Assembly: GCF_000008365.1 (NCBI RefSeq)
Contig: NC_006908.1
Location: 660,001-692,000, forward strand
Source of the DNA: Mycoplasma mobile 163K
GTDB taxonomy: Bacteria; Bacillota_I; Bacilli_A; Mycoplasmatales; Metamycoplasmataceae
DNA: 32,000 nt
Direction: 5' to 3'
In this document: piece by piece, positions 591 to 23,502 of the stretch
Position numbering within the stretch: position 1 is the first letter of the stretch
Layout: each line of letters begins with the position of its first letter
Program-made: the position numbers and the translations under genes
The notes under the pieces: model-generated
What the model was told of the DNA's origin: nothing
Databases searched by the model: none
The model's input: the letters and a program-made list of their open reading frames with translations, nothing else

Positions 591-1295
591 CTATTTTACC
601 AAATCTTTATTTAAAGCAAAATTTTTGAATTCAAAAGCTATTGTATATTCGCCTTTAATTGAATCTTTTTTTTCAAAAATTTTATAAATTTCACTTACAT
701 TTCCAAAAAAGTGTTCTTCAAATTTTTTTGTCAATTCTTTTCCTACAAAAATTTGAAGAAAATTTCCGAATACAAATTCTAGATCTTTTAAAACGCTCAT
801 TAATTTGTGTGGAGATACAAAAGCAACATAAGATCCAGGAATTAATTTTTTTAAATGATTTTGCCTTTGAATTGTTTTATCTTTAAAAAAACCTAAAAAA
901 GTAAAATGTGTATCAAATCCACTTAAAACAGCTGTACTTGTAATTGCAGATACCCCAGGAATAAGTTCGTATTTAATATTGTTTTCTCTAACTAATTTCA
1001 AAACTCTAAATCCTGGATCGCTTAAAATTGGCATTCCTGCATCTGAAATTAGAGCTACGGATTTATTTTCATTTTGAATCAGACTAATAATTCCTTTTGC
1101 CGAATTTATTTCGTTCTTGTCATGATAAGAAATAAGTTTTTTACCAATTATTTCAAAATAATTAAGCAATTTTTGACTTTCTCTTGTATCTTCGCAAGCA
1201 ATAACATCGACTTCTTTTAAAATTCTTAAAGCTCTTAAAGTAATATCTTCAAGATTGCCAATTGGTGTTCCTACTATAAAAAATTTAGTTTCCAT
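591..1295 (-). CDS. rsmI: 16S rRNA (cytidine1402-2'-O)-methyltransferase RsmI
   Basis: Intact ORF ending in TAG at 593-591. The N-terminus METKFFIVGTPIGNLEDITLRALRILKEVDVIACEDTR is the RsmI (tetrapyrrole-methylase fold) signature. ATG at 1295-1293 is preferred over the GTG at 1304 used by the ORF track. Confidence 0.9.
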   Translation of the reverse strand: METKFFIVGTPIGNLEDITLRALRILKEVDVIACEDTRESQKLLNYFEIIGKKLISYHDKNEINSAKGIISLIQNENKSVALISDAGMPILSDPGFRVLKLVRENNIKYELIPGVSAITSTAVLSGFDTHFTFLGFFKDKTIQRQNHLKKLIPGSYVAFVSPHKLMSVLKDLEFVFGNFLQIFVGKELTKKFEEHFFGNVSEIYKIFEKKDSIKGEYTIAFEFKNFALNKDLVK

Positions 1296-2244
1296 ATAAC
1301 TCACTTACTTTCAATAAAAAAAATTGCTTTTGAATTTTAAAATTTGTATTGATTTCTAATTTCGATAAGAATTCTTCAATAAAATAATAAATTGGATAAA
1401 ATTGTACTTTTATTTCTTGATATTTTTGAACTAATTCGTAAAATGGTAAAAAAGCTATTTTATCTTTGCCATGACTTGCAAAAACATCTTCAAAAAAAAT
1501 TCTAATTACTTGAAGGACAAAATAATAATTTTCCACATCCAACACTTCTTCTAAAAAATTGATTAAAGAGTATTTATTTATTAAAGATTTATCTAAATTT
1601 TTGAGAGTTTTTTTTACAAGTTCAAAATACTTTTTAGAATTGTATTTATTAGCATCTTCTCAATTATCAAAAACTCTTGCATAAAATTTTATTACATATT
1701 TTTCCAAATCATTTTCTAGAAACAATTCTTCAATTGCTAATTGGTTCATTCTCTTTACATCAAAAACTTGACTTCTACTCACTATAGTAGAAATAACTTT
1801 TTTAATATTATTTGTTCCCATCACAATAAAAGTATCTTTAGGGGGATTCTCAATGTATTTTAAAAGTGAATTTAGTGATGAAGAATTACCTTTTTCAATA
1901 TTTGCAATGTACAAAATTTTAGGACTATTGCTTTCAAAAGATGTTTTTAAAAATAATTGAATAGCATCTAGCACTTGAGTTTTTTTAATGGTATCATTAA
2001 TAGGTTTTAGTTCCAGAAAATCAAAATACTTTCCTTCTTTAAGGTAATTTAAATCATATAAATTCCCTTTATACAATTCAATTATTTTTAAAATTAAATA
2101 ATATGCAGAATTATCAATTGAAGTATTTTTATCTGCTTTTAATAAAAATGAATGTGTAATTTTTTTGTTTTGAAAAGCAGTATCAACACTTTGTTTGAAA
2201 ACTCTATTTGCCTTTTCTAAAAAATTCAAGAAATCTATTTTCAT
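1285..2244 (-). CDS. holB: DNA polymerase III delta' subunit (clamp-loader, HolB-like)
   Basis: ORFs 1660-2244 and 1285-1545 are in the same frame and join through TGA (Trp) at 1662-1660 with no TAA/TAG between them, giving about 319 aa. It has an AAA+ clamp-loader layout without a canonical Walker A and an SRC-like IVSRSQVF motif. The holB...rsmI neighbourhood matches Firmicutes. The 3' end overlaps the rsmI start. Confidence 0.75.
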
Positions 2245-2275
2245 AAATTAATTATATTTACATTAAGAATAAATC

Positions 2276-3619
2276 TTAAAATAAATTGCCTAGAGATCCA
2301 GGATTCAATGTTCCATCTTTCATTGATTTAGAAATTTGTTTCATTTTTTTAGACATTTGATCAAATTCAGAAACAAGTAAATTATATTCTTGAACACTTC
2401 TCCCTGATCCTTTAATTACTCTTTGTTTTCTAGATTGATTTTTTAGTAATCTTGGATCTTTTCTCTCTGAAATTGTCATAGAAGAAATTAAAATTTCAAA
2501 TACTTTGATTTTATCTTCTGCTTTATCAATTTTTTCCGGGTCAATCTTATTTGCGCCAGGAATCATTTTTAATAATTTAGACATTTTTCCTAGTTTTTTA
2601 ATTTGTCTTAAATTTTCTAGTAAATCATCTAAATCAAAGTGCCCAGACATAAATCTAGAAAACATTTTTTTAGATTTTTTTTCATCAATGACATCTTGAG
2701 CTTTCTCAATTAAAGATAAAACATCACCCATTCCTAAAATTCTATCAGCCATACGATCTGGATGAAATAAATCTAAATTAGTAACTTTTTCACCAGTACC
2801 AATAAAAAGAATTGGAATGTTTAGCATTTTTGTTATGCTTAAAGCAGCTCCTCCACGAGCATCGGAATCTAATTTAGTAATTATTGAACCTGTTAATTTC
2901 AATTTTTCATCAAAAGTTTTTGCAACATTAAAAATATCTTGTCCACTTAAAGCATCTGATACAAAAATAATTTCTTGTGGTTTTGCAATTTCCTTTATTT
3001 CGATCAATTCATTCATTAATTTTTCATCAATTGATAATCTTCCTGCTGTATCAATTAAAACTAAATCATAATACTCATTTTTTGCTTTATCAATTGCTTC
3101 TTTTACAGTTTGTTGAGGTTTTATGTCAACTGAATTTTTGTAAATGTCAACTCCTACCATTTTAGATAAGGTGTCTAATTGATCAATTGCAGCAGGTCTA
3201 TAAATATCTCCTGCTACAATCAAAATTTTTTCAATTTTCTTTTTGTTTTTATAAAAATGAGCTATTTTTGCAATTGTAGTAGTTTTCCCTCCACCTTGTA
3301 AACCAGCAATCATAAAAATAGTGGGTTTTTTTGAAATATTTATTTCCTTTGTTTTATTTCCAAAAATTTTGACTAATTCTTCTTTTACAATTTTTATTAC
3401 TTGTTGTCCTGGATTTAATTTACCTATTAATTCTGTTCCAATTGTTTGATCTTTAATATTTTGAATAAATTCTTTTACGACAATTAAATTAACATCAGCT
3501 TCTAATAAAGCTAATTTAATTTCTCTAGTAATTTCTAAAATGTCTTCTTCTTTTAAAATTGTCTTTGCAGACATTTTTTCAAGTGATTTTTGCATTCTTT
3601 TTGATAAATTATTAAACAT
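2276..3619 (-). CDS. ffh: signal recognition particle protein Ffh
   Basis: 447-aa intact ORF. SRP-GTPase motifs AGLQGGGKTTT, DTAGR and TKLD are present, with a Met/Lys-rich C-terminal M domain (KLGKMSKLLKMIPG). Confidence 0.95.
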   Translation of the reverse strand: MFNNLSKRMQKSLEKMSAKTILKEEDILEITREIKLALLEADVNLIVVKEFIQNIKDQTIGTELIGKLNPGQQVIKIVKEELVKIFGNKTKEINISKKPTIFMIAGLQGGGKTTTIAKIAHFYKNKKKIEKILIVAGDIYRPAAIDQLDTLSKMVGVDIYKNSVDIKPQQTVKEAIDKAKNEYYDLVLIDTAGRLSIDEKLMNELIEIKEIAKPQEIIFVSDALSGQDIFNVAKTFDEKLKLTGSIITKLDSDARGGAALSITKMLNIPILFIGTGEKVTNLDLFHPDRMADRILGMGDVLSLIEKAQDVIDEKKSKKMFSRFMSGHFDLDDLLENLRQIKKLGKMSKLLKMIPGANKIDPEKIDKAEDKIKVFEILISSMTISERKDPRLLKNQSRKQRVIKGSGRSVQEYNLLVSEFDQMSKKMKQISKSMKDGTLNPGSLGNLF

Positions 3620-4672: not shown

Positions 4673-5827
4673 TTATTCTTCATCTATTGCATTTATTTCC
4701 TCTAATAAAATAGGATCTTTATCAATTAATTTTTTAAATTTATCTTGTTTTTTCTCTAAAGTCGGATAATGAGATTCCATAGCAATCCCAAAATCTTTTT
4801 GAACAGCCAAAAGTTTTTTTGTAAATTTGTCTAAAGTCTCAAAAGTTGAAAGAACATGTTTGTATAAATTTGCTCCTTTTTCCATTTGAGTTGCAAAACT
4901 TAATAAGTTATCTAAATTTCAAGCAAATTGAATAAAAGTAGAAGGAGATAGAATATGTACTTTATGTTTTTCGATTGCATTTTTAATAACATCTGGATAT
5001 TCTTGATATAGTTTTAAATAAATTAAATCATTATGAATAACTAACATTCCATATGATTCTGTATAAGTTTTGTTTAAATATAGAGAAGAGATTTTTTTAA
5101 CTTGTGTTTCTAGAGAACTTATTCAATTCTTATCAAGAAAAATTTCATTTTCAATAATTGAAGGTTCCAAAACTTTTGAATCAATAGGAATTCATTTATT
5201 GGCATTTGTTGATCTTAAAGCAAATTCAACAACATTTTTTTCATTTTGGCCATTATCTTTAATTTTATTAGAAACATTTAGATTAGAAATTCAATTATCT
5301 TTATTTAATCCTGATTGAATTAAAATTTGTTCTAATTGCAATTCCCCTAATTCACCCTTACCTTTATTTCAAGATCCAAAAAATGTTTCTTGAATTTTTT
5401 CAAGAGGAACTAATTTATGAGAAATTTCTCTTCTTCAATTTTCAGTTTCATTTTCATGATTGATAATTTTTGACCTAAGATTTTCAATTTCCAAATTCTT
5501 TTTTTCTAGTTCTAATTGTTTGTTAGTTTTTTGTTCTTCTAAATTTTTTTGACTAGCTTCAAGATATTTTAAATTTTCTTGGTTTTTTATTAGCTGATTT
5601 TTTCAATCACTTGCATTTAATTTTTCGTTTTCTATTTGTTTAACAAGAGATTCATTTGAATTATTAAGAACTGCTAATTTTTTTTCTAGTTCAATTCTTA
5701 GAGTTTCTAATTCTTGATTTCTAGTCATCAAATTAGGATCTGCATTTTCACTAAGTGATTGTTTAAAATAGTTTTCGAATTTCTCTCAAGACATAAAAAG
5801 TCTTTTAAATCATGATATTTTTTTCAT
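4673..5827 (-). CDS. rmuC: DNA recombination protein RmuC family
   Basis: ATG at 5827-5825 is preceded by AAGGAG (complement of 5839-5831). I checked codon by codon that 4673-5827 has no TAA/TAG; only TGA interrupts it. About 384 aa: a long N-terminal coiled coil, then an RmuC-type nuclease-like core (VVEFALRSTNANKWIPIDSKV resembles the PDxxxxLP...xIDAK block). Confidence 0.75.
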
Positions 5828-6084: not shown

Positions 6085-6549
6085 ATGGAAAATAAAGTTT
6101 TAGATTGACATTCATATTTTATGGCTCTTTCAAAAGTTAGTGCATTAAGAAGTAAGGACCCAAATACAAAAGTGGGTGCTTGTATAGTAGATGACAATAA
6201 AAGGGTTGTTTCTCTTGGTTATAATGGTATGCCACGTGGTGATGATAAAAATTTTTCTTGAAAAAGAGATAATGAAAAAGCAGCAGACAATAAATATGCT
6301 TATGTTATTCATGCTGAAATTAATGCAATTTTGAACGCAAACAAACAAATAGATTCTAAATGCGTTTTATATGTTAGTTTGTTCCCGTGTTCAAATTGTG
6401 CAAAAATTATTGCACAAGTTGGAATTAATCAACTTTATTATGAAGAAGATAAATACAATGGAACTGAAGATGATATTATTAGCAAAAAAATTCTTGATTC
6501 TTTAGAAGTAAAATACAAAAAAATTCCAAAAGTAAGTTTTAGTATTTAA
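6085..6549 (+). CDS. comEB: dCMP deaminase (ComEB-type cytidine/deoxycytidylate deaminase)
   Basis: ATG at 6085 is in the same frame as track ORF 6331-6549, and two in-frame TGA read as Trp. Zinc motifs HAEINAI and PCSNCAKII are present, along with SLGYNGMPRG. Confidence 0.9.
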
Positions 6550-7100
6550 AAAACAAATTCTTTGCCTATTTCAAAATCTGATTTAATTAATTCATCACTA
6601 TTTTTTAAATTTAAACTTTTATAAGAAAGGATCATTCCTTCACTTTCGATATTGACTACTTTAGAATTTGAAATTTTCAATCCATTTGGTAAGTATGAAT
6701 TGGAAGTAGCAAAAACTAATTTTTCACCTTGTTTTAAATCAATCCTGTTAGTAACAATTTTATAATTTTTGTTTGATTTAATATTTATAATTATTAATTT
6801 ATCACTATTTGGATGTTTTTCAATTTTTTCAATGAATCCTACAAGGTAAAAAGGTTGAAAAATAAAATCTTTAAAAATTTCTGGGAATTCTTCTAGAAGA
6901 ATATTTTTTTCTTTAAATGCTAAAATTGAAAAACCTTCTTTTAAATAAGAAAATTTATCAAAATCAAAAATATTTAAAGCTACAAGTTTTTCCTTAGAAT
7001 AAATAAAACAAAAATTTTTACTTTGTTTTATTCTTAAGTCTTCTTCCAAATTATTGAAATTTATGTAAAAATTGTTGCTTTGCTTAAAAATTAATGCCAT
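6546..7100 (-). CDS. tRNA-binding domain protein (YtpR/CsaA/PheT-B2-like OB fold)
   Basis: 184-aa intact ORF. The C-terminal half (VGFIEKIEKHPNSDKLIIINI...VVNIESEGMILS) matches the EMAP/CsaA-type tRNA-binding OB-fold pattern (HPNADKL...S.GM). Confidence 0.75.
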   Translation of the reverse strand: MALIFKQSNNFYINFNNLEEDLRIKQSKNFCFIYSKEKLVALNIFDFDKFSYLKEGFSILAFKEKNILLEEFPEIFKDFIFQPFYLVGFIEKIEKHPNSDKLIIINIKSNKNYKIVTNRIDLKQGEKLVFATSNSYLPNGLKISNSKVVNIESEGMILSYKSLNLKNSDELIKSDFEIGKEFVF

Positions 7101-12527: not shown

Positions 12528-14420
12528 TTAAATAATAAAATTTAAAATTTTCTTTGCAATATAAATTTCTTTTTTGATAATTTTATTTTCCAAATGTTTT
12601 TTAACATTAGGAAGTTTTTTAGCTTCTTCAATAACTCTTTTTTCATCTCAATCATTTTCTATTTCAAAAGTTTCACGTAATTTTCCATTTACTTGAATTG
12701 CTACAATATCTTTTGTAAGTAAAATTTTATTATTTTCATAAGTTGGTCAACTTTGAAACATAATTTCTTTTTCGCCTAAAGATTCAAGTAATTCTTCTGA
12801 AATATGTGGAGCAATTGTCGAAAACATAATTGCAAAATCTTTTAAAGGTTTTAATGAATAAATTTTTTCTTTTTTATAAAGAGAATTAACAAAAATCATT
12901 AATTTAGAAATCATAATATTAAATTTCAAATCTTCAATATCTTGAGTGATTTCTTTAATCAAAAGATTGTGTTCTGAAATAAATTGATCATCTTTATGTA
13001 ATGAATTTATTTTAGATTTGTCTTCTATAAAAATTTGAAAAATTCTTTTAACTCTTAAAATCCATTTATAAGTAGCTTCAACAGTAGATTCATTTCATTT
13101 CTTAGTATCTGTTAAAGGTCCCATAAACATTTCATAAACTCTTAAAGTATCTGCTCCAAAATTTTGAATAATCTCATCAGGATTTACAACATTTCCAAGA
13201 GACTTTGACATTTTTTGACCATCTTTACCTAGAATCATTCCTTGATTAATTAATTTTTGAAATGGTTCTTTAGTAGGGACTATTTTTAAATCATAAAGAA
13301 TTTTGTGCCAAAATCTTGCATATAACAAGTGTAAAACAGCGTGTTCTTGACCCCCAATATATAAATCAACAGGTAATCATTTACTAAAGGCTTCATAAGC
13401 TTTTTTTGAATCAATTGGTAAATAAGTTCCATCTTCTTGTTTCATTATGTATGCAAGATAATATCAACAACTTCCTGCTCATTGAGGCATTGTATTTGTA
13501 TCTCTTTTAAAAATTTTATTATTTTTTTTATACTGAACTCATTCTGTATTTGTTGCTAAAGGTCCTTCACCTGTTCCAGAAGGCATAATATTTTCCATAT
13601 GAGGTAATTCAACAAGTTCATCAATCAAATAAACATTGTTATCTTCATCAAAATACACAGGAAAAGGTTCACCTCAATATCTTTGTCTTGCAAAAATTCA
13701 ATCTTGCAATTTATAAGTTATTTTTCCATCTATTTCTTCTTTTCCAATTCAATTGGTTTGAAGTTTTTTTAAAGAATCAGGTCAATCTAATAAATTTAAA
13801 TCTTCTAATAATCTATCAGCGTAATTAGTAATTTTCAAAACTCATTGTTTCATAGGTTTTTTATAAACTGGAAATGATCCTCTTTCAGAAACCATTTCTC
13901 CTTTATCATTTTCAACAATTTCTTCATTTGCTAAAACAGTACCTAATCCAGGACATCAATTAACATCAACTTCTCTAATCTCGGCTAAACCTTTTTTGTA
14001 AATTTGTTTAAAAATTCATTGTGTTCAACGATAATAAGAAGGATCTGTTGTATTTACTTCCTTTTCATAATCGAAACTAAATCCTAAAGATTTTAATTGT
14101 CTTCTAAAATTTTCAATATTTTTTAATGTAAATGGTTGAGGATGCTTTCCACTTGATAAAGCATATTGCTCAGCAGGAAGTCCAAAAGCATCTCAACCTA
14201 TTGGATGCAAAACATCAAAACCTTTTAACCTTTTATATCTAGATATAATATCTGTAGCTGTGTAGCCTTCAGGGTGACCAACATGCAATCCTGATCCCGA
14301 AGGATAAGGAAACATATCTAATGCATAAAATTTATCTTTAGATTTATTTGTTGTTTTAAATGCTTTTGTTTTTTCTCATCTTGTTTGTCACTTTTTTTCG
14401 ATTTCGTTGTGATTATACAT
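12528..14420 (-). CDS. leuS: leucyl-tRNA synthetase, intact but lacking the CP1 editing domain (630 aa)
   Basis: ATG at 14420-14418 and TAA at 12530-12528. I walked every codon: there is no TAA/TAG, and many TGA fall at conserved Trp positions (PIGWDAFG, NWIG, RQRYWGEP). HIGH motif HVGHPEG and KMSKS motif KMSKS are present. The sequence ...[35 protein letters not shown] joins the two Rossmann halves directly. Confidence 0.95.
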
Positions 14421-14450: not shown

Positions 14451-14481
14451 AAAATAAAAAGCAAGATTACTCTTGCTTTTT
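14451..14481 (-). terminator. rho-independent terminator of ftsH, overlapping its stop codon
   Basis: AAAAAGCAAGA (14456-14466), loop TTAC, TCTTGCTTTTT (14471-14481). On the minus strand the hairpin is followed by TTTTTATTTT. A minus-strand TATAAT (complement of 14446-14451) for leuS lies just beyond it. Confidence 0.7.
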
Positions 14482-16603
14482 ATTTTATATCTAAAGATTC
14501 GTCTGTTTTAATATTATTTTCAGAATCTTTTATTTTCTTGTCATTCTTGTCTTTGATAATTAGAGTTTGATCTTTAACTTCTTTTACTAATTCATCAACA
14601 TTTCTGATTTGATTAACATTTTCTGATTTGGCTTTTGTTCTCATTGATGGTAATTTTAAGTTTTTTGCAATGTATTGAATTTCTTCATCAACAATTGTTT
14701 CATTTTCTAAAAGTGCTTCTTTAATAAGTTCAAGCATTTCACGATTCTCTTGAATAACTTCAATAGCTTTTTGCTCTGCTGTAAGAATTATTTTCCTTAC
14801 TTCAGTATCAATTTCTCTTGCAATGTGATCTGAGAATAATTGATTTTTTGTATAATCTCTCCCTAAAAAAGGATTAGAGGTATCTTCTTCATACATAATT
14901 GGACCTAAATCAGACATACCTCATTCTGTGACCATCTTTCTAGCAATTGAAGTAGCTTTTTTAATATCATCTCTTGCGCCTGTAGAAACTTCTTTTTCGC
15001 CATAAATAATTTGCTCAGCAGCTCTACCACCCATAAATGAAGTAATCATTGCAATTAATTCAGATTTTGAAGAATTGTATTTTTCTTCTTCAGGAATCAT
15101 TAAGTTATAGCCCCCTGCAGAACCACGAGGAATAATGGTTATTTTTTGAACCTTTACACCTTTTCTTAATTGAGTTCCGACAACAGCATGACCTGCTTCA
15201 TGATATGCTACAGCAGTTAGTTCTTCTTTTGTAATTACTCTTGATTTTTTAGCAGGTCCAGACATTACTCTATCAATTGCTTCATCAAATTGTTCTAAAG
15301 TAATTATTTTAGTGTCTTCTCTTACAGATAATAAAGATGCTTCATTAATAACATTTTCTAATTGAGCTCCTGAATACCCTGGGGTTCTTTTTGCTAATTG
15401 TTGAAAACTAACTTCACTAGAAATTCTTTTTCCTTTAGCATGTAATTTTAAAATAGCTTCACGATCTTTCACATTTGGAAGTCCTACTGTAACAGTTCTA
15501 TCAAAACGCCCAGGTCTTAATAAAGCAGGATCTAAAACATCTGTTCTATTAGTTGCAGCCATAACTAGAAGGCCACTATTTTCAGTCATTCCGTCCATTT
15601 CAACGAGTAATTGATTAAGAGTTTGCTCTCTTTCGTCATTACCTCCACCTATTCCTGCTCCTCTACTTCTTCCAACAGCATCTAATTCATCAATAAAAAT
15701 AATAGCTGGAGATGATTTACGAGCTTCTTTAAATAATTCTCTAACTCTTTTAGCTCCGACTCCGACAAATAATTCAACAAAGTTAGAACCTGAAATAAAG
15801 TAAAAAGGTACATTCGCTTCACCGGCAGTTGCTTTTGCAAGTAAAGTTTTTCCTGTTCCTGGAGGACCACCTAATAAAATCCCTCTTGGAATTCTTGCTC
15901 CTGAAGCAGAATATTTTTTTGGATTTTTCAAATAATCTACTAATTCTGCAACTTCTTCTTTTACTTCTTCATTTCCTGCAATATCAGAAAATTTAATTTT
16001 TGTATAAATTCTTTCAGCTTGGTTTTTTCCTGGATTAAATCCACCCATACCGCCGTTTGCTTTGGACTGCATTTTATAAACAAAAAAGATAATACCAACA
16101 AATAAAAATGTAGGAATTAACGATAAAAGAATTGCTAATGCTTGATTAGTTGGAGTTACAAGTCCTGAAAAATTTAGTGTACCTATTCCACTAGCTGAAG
16201 TGTTAGCAATTGCTAAAGTGGCTAATTCAAGCCCTGTAAATGTAGTACCAGGAATTTGTAGATTTTGAAAAGCAACCGAACTTGGATAATTTACAAAATA
16301 AGAACTCGTAGTTGCTCCATTTACAAAAGTTACATTAAATCTTGATAAAACAACATCAAAAGATATATTTCTAAAAAATATAGTATCATCTCCTAATCTT
16401 GCTGCATCTTGTAAATCTTTTAAAAATCCATCAAAACTTTTATTGGTTCCTGGATTATTTGGAAGAAAAGCAAAAACAACTCAAATTAAAAGCAAGGCAA
16501 CTATTACAAAAATTATGATATTACCAATACTAAATGCACCGGGTTTTTTAGGTTTTTTGTTGCTGTCCTTGCTTTTATCTTTTTTATTGTCTAATTCTGA
16601 CAT
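14480..16603 (-). CDS. ftsH: ATP-dependent zinc metalloprotease FtsH
   Basis: ATG at 16603-16601 is preceded by AAGGAGATAGAA. Track ORFs 14480-14917 and 14921-16072 plus the N-terminal region form one frame (checked open). The TGA at 14923-14921 is the conserved Trp of VTEWGMS. It has two TM segments, Walker A GPPGTGKT, Walker B IIFIDELD and the zinc motif HEAGH. About 707 aa. Confidence 0.97.
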
Positions 16604-16698: not shown

Positions 16699-17238
16699 CT
16701 ATTTATTATAACTATTCATCACAATTCTTATGTCATTGAATAAAAAAGAAATAGCTGCTTCTGCTGCTTGATTAATTACTAAATCAATGATTTTAAATTC
16801 TTCCAAAGTAAAATCACTTAAAACATGTTTTGCTGCTTCTTGATTTTTACCAATTCCAATTTTCAGTCTTGGAATTTCTTCTGTATTCATTTTTAAAAGA
16901 ATATCTTTTATTCCATTTTGCCCATTGGACCCACCTTTTGGTTTAATTGCTGCTTGGCCAACTTCATAGCTCATATCATCATAAATGATTAAAATATTAT
17001 TAGGACTTACTTTAAAATAAGTACTTATATTTTTTACAAAATCTCCACTTAAATTCATATATGTAGTTGGCTTTGCAATAATAAATTCTTCAGTTTTTAC
17101 AAAAATACCTGAAAATTTTTCTTTATTTATTTTTAAACGTAAATTTTCCAAAATTTTATCTACAACCATGTAGCCAACATTATGTCTATTTTTTTGATAT
17201 TTAGGATCTGGATTCCCTAGACCAATTATTAATTTCAT
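16699..17238 (-). CDS. pth: peptidyl-tRNA hydrolase
   Basis: MKLIIGLGNPDPKYQKNRHNVGYMV is the canonical Pth N-terminus. ATG at 17238-17236 is preferred over the track's upstream start at 17271. Confidence 0.92.
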   Translation of the reverse strand: MKLIIGLGNPDPKYQKNRHNVGYMVVDKILENLRLKINKEKFSGIFVKTEEFIIAKPTTYMNLSGDFVKNISTYFKVSPNNILIIYDDMSYEVGQAAIKPKGGSNGQNGIKDILLKMNTEEIPRLKIGIGKNQEAAKHVLSDFTLEEFKIIDLVINQAAEAAISFLFNDIRIVMNSYNK

Positions 17239-17314
17239 AAAAAAATTATACCTATTTTGGAATAAAAACATAAAAGTATTAAATATTATAAAATCATGCA
17301 GATCAAATAAGTGT

Positions 17315-22254: not shown

Positions 22255-23502
22255 ATGAATAGTTTTTTAAAAGAGTTGCAAGAGAAAAATCTGATTCAAG
22301 ATATTTCTAATATTGAAAAAATTGAAAATTCTTTAAAAAATAAAATGGGTATTTATGTAGGTTTTGATCCAAGTGCAAAAAGCATTCATTTAGGAAACTT
22401 TGTTGTTATTAATGTACTTTTAATTGCAAAAAAACACAGAATTCCAACAGTCGCTTTAATTGGTGGAGCAACAGGAGGAATTGGTGATCCTTCAGGCAAA
22501 AAAAGCGAAAGAATTTTAATTGATGAAGATACTTTAAAAAAGAACACAGAAGCAATTAAAAAGCAAATTAAACATTTTCTTCCGGATGCAAAAATTGTTA
22601 ATAATAGTGATTTTTACAAAAATCAAAGTTTCATTGATTTTTTAAGAGATGTTGGAAAATTCATTCAAGTTTCTTATATGTTATCAAAAGAAATAGTTAA
22701 AAATAGGCTTGAAAGTGGGATTTCTTTTACTGAATTTGCATATTCACTAATTCAAGCAAATGATTTTCATTATTTATTTAAAAATCATAATGTAGGGATT
22801 CAATTTGGAGGTTCAGATCAATGAGGGAATATTACGACAGGTCTTGAATTAATTAGAAAAAGAAATGGGGAAAATAGTTTTAGTGGAGGTTTTACAATCA
22901 AGCTTCTATTAAAATCTGATGGGACAAAATTTGGAAAAAGTGAACAAGGAGCTATTTATCTCGATCCTTCACTAACTAGCCCATATACAATGTATCAATT
23001 TCTTTTGAATCAAAATGACAGTGATTTATTGAATTTATTCAATTTTATTTCTGATTTAGGAATAAAAGAAATTTTGGAAATTATTACTAAACATAGTGAA
23101 AATCCTGAAAAAAGATATGGGCAAAAAATGCTTGCAAATAATATTGTAAACCGCATCCATGGAAAAAATGCTTTAAATGAAGTTGAAAATATCTCAAATA
23201 TTTTATTTAAAAATGGAAAAATAAATGATTTAAGTAAAAGTGAGGTTTCTATTATTATTAATAGTTTTGAAGTGAATCATGTAAATTTTTCTAATGATGA
23301 AAAAATTATTGATATTTTAGATAGAGCAAAAATTTTTAAATCAAAAAATGAAATAAGAAAATTAATTGAGCAAAAAGGGCTTGTTGTTGGTGCTGAAATA
23401 ATTACTGATTTTGATCAAATATTAAAAGATTCTAATTTAACACATGGAGTTATTTTTGCTAGGCAAGGAAAGAAAAAAATTTTTATTATCAAAAAATCTT
23501 AA
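22255..23502 (+). CDS. tyrS: tyrosyl-tRNA synthetase
   Basis: SD ACGGAGGAAAT lies before the ATG at 22255. Track ORFs 22255-22824 and 22990-23502 are the same frame, joined through TGA (GSDQWGN). HIGH-type motif SIHLGN, KMSKS-type motif KFGKS and a C-terminal S4-like domain are present. About 415 aa. Confidence 0.95.

Follow-up and report, generated by a model that had tools for sequence, protein, structure and literature searches.

The window, by which we mean the whole stretch of DNA that was analysed (32,000 nucleotides), lies within the single-contig genome of Mycoplasma mobile (777,079 bp, 99.9% complete). On its minus strand, positions 12528-14420 form a single open reading frame of 630 amino acids with no internal stop under genetic code 4 (table 4). 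The product scores 765.8 bits against the NCBIfam model TIGR00396 (leuS_bact; cut-off 548.4), which identifies it as a bacterial-type leucine--tRNA ligase (LeuRS). The gene and its features are as follows.

12528-14420, minus strand: leuS coding sequence, 630 codons plus stop, with TGA read as Trp at 18 codons
14274-14285, minus strand: HIGH signature (HVGH, residues 46-49), from translation and alignment
13716-13742, minus strand: nonapeptide linker K-E-E-I-D-G-K-I-T (residues 227-235, K227-T235) at the CP1 site, codons read directly
13713-13742, minus strand: predicted β-hairpin (strands 227-230 and 233-236 with a D-G turn), from an AlphaFold2 model
13218-13229, minus strand: tetrapeptide GKDG (residues 398-401), which replaces the leucine-specific domain, from translation and PMC3643597
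13200-13214, minus strand: KMSKS catalytic loop (residues 403-407), from translation and alignment
12636-12989, minus strand: anticodon-binding domain (Pfam PF08264, Anticodon_1, residues 478-595)
12531-12725, minus strand: C-terminal tRNA-binding domain (approximately residues 566-630), from alignment to Thermus thermophilus LeuRS

A genome search found leuS in single copy, the further matches being the valS gene and two more class I paralogues. The gene is the last of a co-oriented minus-strand run of pth (16699-17271), ftsH (14480-16603) and leuS, with upp converging on it from the other side; it is probably co-transcribed with pth and ftsH, two closely spaced protein-quality-control genes. 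Elsewhere the window carries a TapR/YtpR-type tRNA-binding protein related to the PheT N-terminal domain (6546-7100, minus strand; 128 bits to NF045867), tyrS (22255-23502, plus strand) and a 384-aa open reading frame with 9 TGA codons read as Trp that has no NCBIfam match at E ≤ 1e-5 (4673-5827, minus strand).

The two signatures of class I leuS_bact enzymes, HIGH and KMSKS, are both present. In an alignment of 36 CP1-less homologues H46, G48 and H49 are invariant and V47 nearly so, and KMSKS is likewise invariant. Pfam matches in the protein are to tRNA-synt_1, tRNA-synt_1g, tRNA-synt_1e and Anticodon_1. The anticodon-binding and C-terminal tRNA-binding domains expected of the family were both found; the latter aligns through the last residue of the T. 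thermophilus enzyme (chain residues up to 876) and shows a pattern of strand and helix in the AlphaFold2 model.

The nine linker codons at 13742-13716 immediately join ...LQTNWIG to YKLQDWIFARQRYWGEP..., and the CP1 domain that follows the NWIG motif in leuS_bact enzymes is absent, the Pfam search giving no match to PF13603 (LeuRS editing domain) anywhere in the protein. The leuS_bact match falls into two stretches, residues 233-630 corresponding to model positions 406-842 and the CP1 positions of the model being passed over. The segment from NWI to DW comprises 13 residues here versus 169-189 in CP1-containing relatives. Alignment to Thermus LeuRS breaks at the linker, with query residue 229 corresponding to chain residue 228 and query residues from 223 onwards to chain residues from 403 onwards. 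The leucine-specific domain that precedes KMSKS in leuS_bact enzymes is also absent, GKDG being the only residues separating the NQGMIL motif from the Q before KMSKS. Such a domain is found in many, not all, bacterial LeuRS.

The initial annotation, made from the letters alone, had read leuS as uninterrupted apart from its TGA-Trp codons and 630 aa long, with HIGH, KMSKS and the C-terminal domain present and CP1 replaced by a nine-residue linker at 13716-13742. The single open frame, the two motifs at residues 46-49 and 403-407 and the Thermus alignment to the C-terminal end bear out the former points; direct reading of the codons, the lack of PF13603 and the split leuS_bact match bear out the linker and its coordinates. 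The two comparisons it had proposed for this, an alignment to Thermus LeuRS and an editing-domain profile search, thus both came out in its favour, and the Pfam search found no editing domain elsewhere in the gene. The loss of the leucine-specific domain was overlooked.

The AlphaFold2 model of the protein (m58f286988506), for which the alignment input was the 36 CP1-less homologues, has a mean pLDDT of 84.8 and a pTM of 0.83, with a pLDDT of approximately 87 over residues 221-240; the loop 394-410 around KMSKS is of low confidence. In this model the linker is the two-stranded stalk that normally carries CP1, predicted to be closed into a hairpin.

Over its full length of 630 residues the leuS product shares 100% identity with PDB 3ZIU_A. 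This leucyl-tRNA synthetase chain is 637 residues long, its seven extra residues at the N-terminus presumably being a tag. The M. mobile enzyme (MmLeuRS) has been described by Yan, Tan, Eriani and Wang (NAR 2013; PMC3643597) as lacking both CP1 and the leucine-specific domain and having the nonapeptide K227-T235 and GKDG 398-401 instead, and the linker and GKDG residues found here match theirs in identity and numbering. The feature is therefore already known MmLeuRS biology, with nothing new in the feature itself. MmLeuRS is not mentioned in PMC4138327.

The published biochemistry bears directly on function. MmLeuRS charges tRNA-Leu with a kcat/Km of approximately 0.25 per s per μM; it mischarges Ile onto tRNA-Leu in vitro, an activity not seen in chimeras with the E. 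coli CP1, and it does not deacylate mischarged tRNA-Leu (PMC3643597). With norvaline AMP is formed at 0.16 per s in a tRNA-independent reaction (PMC3643597), and since this rate is unchanged by tRNA the enzyme has pre-transfer editing only. According to Tan et al. 2012, as cited in PMC3643597, the E. coli enzyme can aminoacylate with the nonapeptide standing in for CP1. For Mycoplasma proteomes, elevated misincorporation was reported by Li et al. 2011, as cited in reviews including PMC4014445.

Many LeuRS 616-639 aa long, 60-68% identical and without PF13603, came out of a protein search; their sources include Mesomycoplasma moatsii, Mycoplasma todarodis, M. marinum, Mycoplasmopsis agassizii and many uncultured Metamycoplasmataceae. 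We then surveyed all 179 species genomes that GTDB places in the Metamycoplasmataceae. A CP1-less LeuRS, recognised by one contiguous match through the junction, is present in 40 of 177 species genomes, spread over nine GTDB genera. These are M. mobile together with G001-G005, G064-G068, G070, G148, G149, G151, G152 and 24 of the 26 genomes G153-G178 (example loci L010-L033 and L116-L127). The CP1-containing class comprises 62 genomes with a split match, an open reading frame of approximately 790-860 aa and a strong PF13603 match, and a very divergent class comprises 75 genomes (g9 and most of g13) in which the PF13603 signal is only weak. The 2 genomes with no LeuRS match are both incomplete. 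In the literature searched we found nothing linking LeuRS to these CP1-less relatives, biochemistry included, which is absence of evidence only.

The CP1-less enzymes show three kinds of linker. A linker of 13 residues is found in M. mobile, in 23 of the 24 CP1-less species of g16 (M. moatsii among them; the exception, G168, has 14) and in g10 (M. todarodis and M. marinum). Genera g2, g3, g4, g12 and g15 have 9-10 residues, each hairpin strand being two residues shorter, and three of the four species of g14, including M. agassizii, have 14.

In 72 of the 76 genomes of g13 and in the 3 of g9 the LeuRS sequences have diverged strongly from the M. mobile enzyme, for example G097:C1:211818-212279. 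Their best matching piece has an E-value of 1e-41 to 1e-53 versus approximately 1e-118 to 1e-155 in other CP1-bearing genera, and their PF13603 scores are approximately 30-61 bits over model positions of about 1-150 among the matches listed. Judged by these profile scores, the editing domain seems to be degenerate in most of genus g13, four species of which keep a strong one.

Collectively, we take the gene to be leuS of M. mobile, encoding the known minimal bacterial-type MmLeuRS without its CP1 post-transfer editing domain (probability roughly 97%), and no evidence against this was found. The class I catalytic core and the anticodon-binding and C-terminal tRNA-binding domains are kept intact, CP1 has been deleted in its entirety with its two carrier β strands predicted to be closed into a short hairpin (the nonapeptide), and the leucine-specific domain has shrunk to GKDG. 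As the literature shows, the enzyme charges tRNA-Leu, mischarges Ile in vitro and does not deacylate mischarged tRNA-Leu, keeping only weak tRNA-independent pre-transfer editing. No other editing factor being detectable in the genome, Leu codons would be translated with elevated error to give a statistical proteome, as reported by others. The same architecture in 39 further species genomes of the family implies that it is under selection as a working enzyme.

A more faithful outcome can be envisaged in which the loss of CP1 is offset by a more selective synthetic site and pre-transfer editing, with little mistranslation, as in editing-less mitochondrial PheRS and some ProRS. According to a review, errors do not invariably follow when an editing domain is lost, and MmLeuRS does keep its tRNA-independent pre-transfer editing against norvaline (0.16 per s; PMC3643597). 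However, Ile is mischarged in vitro by this enzyme but not by the chimera into which CP1 was inserted (PMC3643597), and elevated misincorporation is reported in Mycoplasma (Li et al. 2011, as cited in reviews). We consider such compensation improbable and favour an editing-deficient enzyme that gives elevated error at Leu codons.

Post-transfer editing of tRNA-Leu might also be supplied in trans by another protein, leaving fidelity normal. The free-standing editing domains YbaK, ProX, AlaX and DTD are known in other bacteria, and the ValRS and IleRS of the M. mobile genome keep their CP1 domains. Searches of the genome make such a factor very unlikely. In a six-frame search of the whole genome PF13603 gave one weak match (28.9 bits, model positions 79-146), which sits inside the 839-aa valS (925 bits to NF004349) and is therefore the CP1 of ValRS itself. 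Neither PF04073 (YbaK/ProX) nor PF02580 (DTD, D-aminoacyl-tRNA deacylase) matched in any of the six frames, whereas they matched in 12 and 10, respectively, of 14 control genomes; PF07973 (tRNA_SAD) had two matches, by number alone no more than AlaRS and ThrRS would explain. Consistent with this, stand-alone editing proteins are absent from all Mollicutes (PMC4014445), and the mistranslation in Mycoplasma proteomes that reviews cite also speaks against normal fidelity. Finally, an assembly or sequencing deletion or a decaying pseudogene, suggested only by a gene some 170 codons shorter than usual, has a negligible chance of being correct given a frame open over 630 codons with all catalytic motifs, a product identical to the independently cloned and crystallised 3ZIU, an active published enzyme (PMC3643597), the same architecture in the 39 other species genomes at 56-64% identity and only one leuS in the genome.

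These results also bear on what the initial annotation had offered with more reserve. Its statement that a CP1-less LeuRS with a nonapeptide had been described for Mycoplasma mobile proved right, by the identity to 3ZIU_A and the numbering in PMC3643597, and the species match that it had suggested for the 630-aa protein came out at 100% to 3ZIU_A. Of the other two circumstances it had named as weakening its account, an assembly deletion at 13716-13742 left no sign (3ZIU identity, published activity, conservation across species) and a free-standing CP1-like factor was not found in the 777-kb genome by the PF13603, PF04073 and PF02580 searches. Its suggestion that the cell tolerates ambiguity at Leu codons agrees with the literature, namely Ile mischarging in vitro and the Mycoplasma proteome mistranslation cited in reviews.

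We then considered how often CP1 has been lost. A ValRS tree covering 45 genomes unites M. mobile with g16, g10 and the genera whose linkers have 9-10 residues (support 91); all members of this group are CP1-less except two g16 genomes. Genus g14 lies elsewhere on this tree, with the CP1-bearing G150 as sister to its three CP1-less members (support 99). The g14 linker ends in T-F-(x)-K-L, like the corresponding sequence of the CP1-bearing sister, whereas that of the other group ends in T-Y-H-L. The separate position of g14 and its linker ending together imply at least two independent deletions, so that CP1 appears from the sequences to have been deleted at least twice, the second time within the genus of M. 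agassizii (g14). In a tree of the LeuRS core the large CP1-less group is not recovered as one clade, with weak support.

The two exceptional g16 genomes, G155 and G178, and the database clusters P0025, P0064 and P0093 have LeuRS of 785-797 aa with CP1. P0064 is G178, and P0093 contains the G155 protein among 31 members from independent assemblies. P0025 and P0064 have the threonine-rich motif and the GTG...D.RD motif of CP1 intact, whereas P0093 retains both Asp but has Lys for the Arg between them. The loci concerned are as follows.

G178:C10 (L034), approximately 1069-3450: leuS, with CP1 at L034:2260-2769
G155:C5 (L035/L036): leuS
L109, L110 and L111 (genomes G371, G367 and G411): probable donor relatives

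By ValRS and FtsH, G155 and G178 belong with eight CP1-less g16 species to a clade of ten that has full support, and the ValRS data reject a single clade of all 29 CP1-less species of the large group (ΔlnL 244, p-AU 1e-44). The core of the CP1-bearing g16 proteins is 78-81% identical to the CP1-less enzymes of the M. moatsii type and nested among them. The CP1 domains point elsewhere. In an order-wide search of 401 genomes the best matches to the G178 CP1 were in genus g46 of another family, f4 (191 and 187 bits, 55-58% identity), versus 143 bits for the best match in its own family. Identities of the G178 LeuRS differ accordingly between the two parts of the protein.

With G371 (g46, f4): core 58.8%, CP1 56.8%
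With CP1-bearing LeuRS of its own family: core 61-70%, CP1 36-48%
With P0025 and P0093: core 79-80%, CP1 50-55%

A tree of CP1 only (183 columns, mixture model) joins the CP1s of the three g16 proteins (99/95) and groups them with three g46 CP1s (100/98), within which they are nested as sister to G371 plus G367 (93/64). The CP1 data reject placing the three with their own family (p-AU 0.0004-0.0005) and the core data reject placing them with g46 (ΔlnL 221, p-AU 2e-61). At diagnostic sites, defined as positions where the g16 CP1-less enzymes and g46 share no residue, the three proteins agree with g16 in 67 of 72 calls on the left side of CP1 (up to residue 206 of G178) and in 197 of 237 calls on the right (from residue 408). 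The pattern reads as a foreign tract limited to approximately residues 207-407 of an otherwise native, formerly CP1-less g16 leuS. Sliding-window identity gave no large foreign tract in the core, the diagnostic sites being the more informative. A word-indexed protein search with the CP1 region only, which is biased by shared words, returned Bacteroidota and Ignavibacteria at 44-45% and no donor.

The most economical account of these data is a single homologous replacement that put a g46-type CP1 into a CP1-less g16 leuS, with breakpoints in or beside the conserved flanking motifs. A scheme of losses only is less economical: it calls for a minimum of three and as many as nine independent deletions plus a transfer of CP1 from g16 to g46, the deletions would have to give near-identical linkers (13 residues in all but one), and the nesting of the three g16 CP1s within g46 does not favour transfer in that direction. 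We had first leaned towards vertical inheritance with parallel losses, because CP1 identities of 31-45% to other CP1s within the family, at 64-70% in the core, resembled normal co-divergence; this was overturned by the closer CP1s that the order-wide search found in another family. Assembly chimeras were also rejected as the source of the CP1-bearing g16 genes: identity among the three CP1s is only 50-55%, and with those of g46 it is 42-57%, one cluster has its 31 members from independent assemblies, and leuS and valS of G178 share one contig. Donor and recipient lineages are known from metagenome-assembled genomes only, and some groups were defined after trees had been seen. With replacement as the preferred reading, horizontal regain of the CP1 editing domain in a lineage next to M. 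moatsii is probable on these sequence comparisons. Taken together, it seems likely to us that deletion of CP1 is clade-wide in the Metamycoplasmataceae, with at least two origins, and was reversed once through a CP1 regained from g46 (family f4).

MmLeuRS, crystallised and assayed, is the textbook case of natural editing-domain deletion and statistical mistranslation. The comparative result would turn a single odd species into a clade of approximately 40 species with three linker designs, which may be of interest to work on translational fidelity, and it suggests that LeuRS proofreading can be discarded repeatedly. The apparent reversal, with a proofreading domain imported by recombination at conserved flanking motifs, would if true be a natural loss followed by horizontal regain of the proofreading domain of an aminoacyl-tRNA synthetase. 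M. moatsii and its CP1-bearing neighbours may then serve as matched natural pairs for testing selection on LeuRS editing.

In comparison with known systems, the protein is the same as MmLeuRS (PDB 3ZIU; Li et al. 2011, Tan et al. 2012, Yan et al. 2013), with no difference. Canonical LeuRS (E. coli 4AQ7/4ARC; Thermus thermophilus 1H3N) belong to the same leuS_bact family, and their HIGH, KMSKS, anticodon-binding and C-terminal domains align with those of M. mobile. They differ in possessing a CP1 of approximately 175-190 residues, the Thermus chain from about 229 to 402 having no counterpart in M. mobile leuS, in possessing a leucine-specific domain (47 residues in the E. coli enzyme versus GKDG in MmLeuRS; PMC3643597) and in performing post-transfer editing. 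The CP1-less enzymes of Mesomycoplasma moatsii, Mycoplasma todarodis, M. marinum, Mycoplasmopsis agassizii and many uncultured relatives in the family share the M. mobile architecture, likewise without the leucine-specific domain; a linker of hairpin length lies between the same flanks, but the linkers differ among groups, with 13 residues in the M. moatsii and marine groups as in M. mobile, 9-10 in other genera and 14 in the M. agassizii group. The editing-deficient LeuRS of microsporidia and the degenerate CP1 of other Mycoplasma belong, like MmLeuRS, to host-restricted organisms in which proofreading is lost and Leu codons are mistranslated, according to reviews. In those enzymes the reviews describe the editing domain as truncated or mutated, whereas in M. 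mobile it is completely excised.
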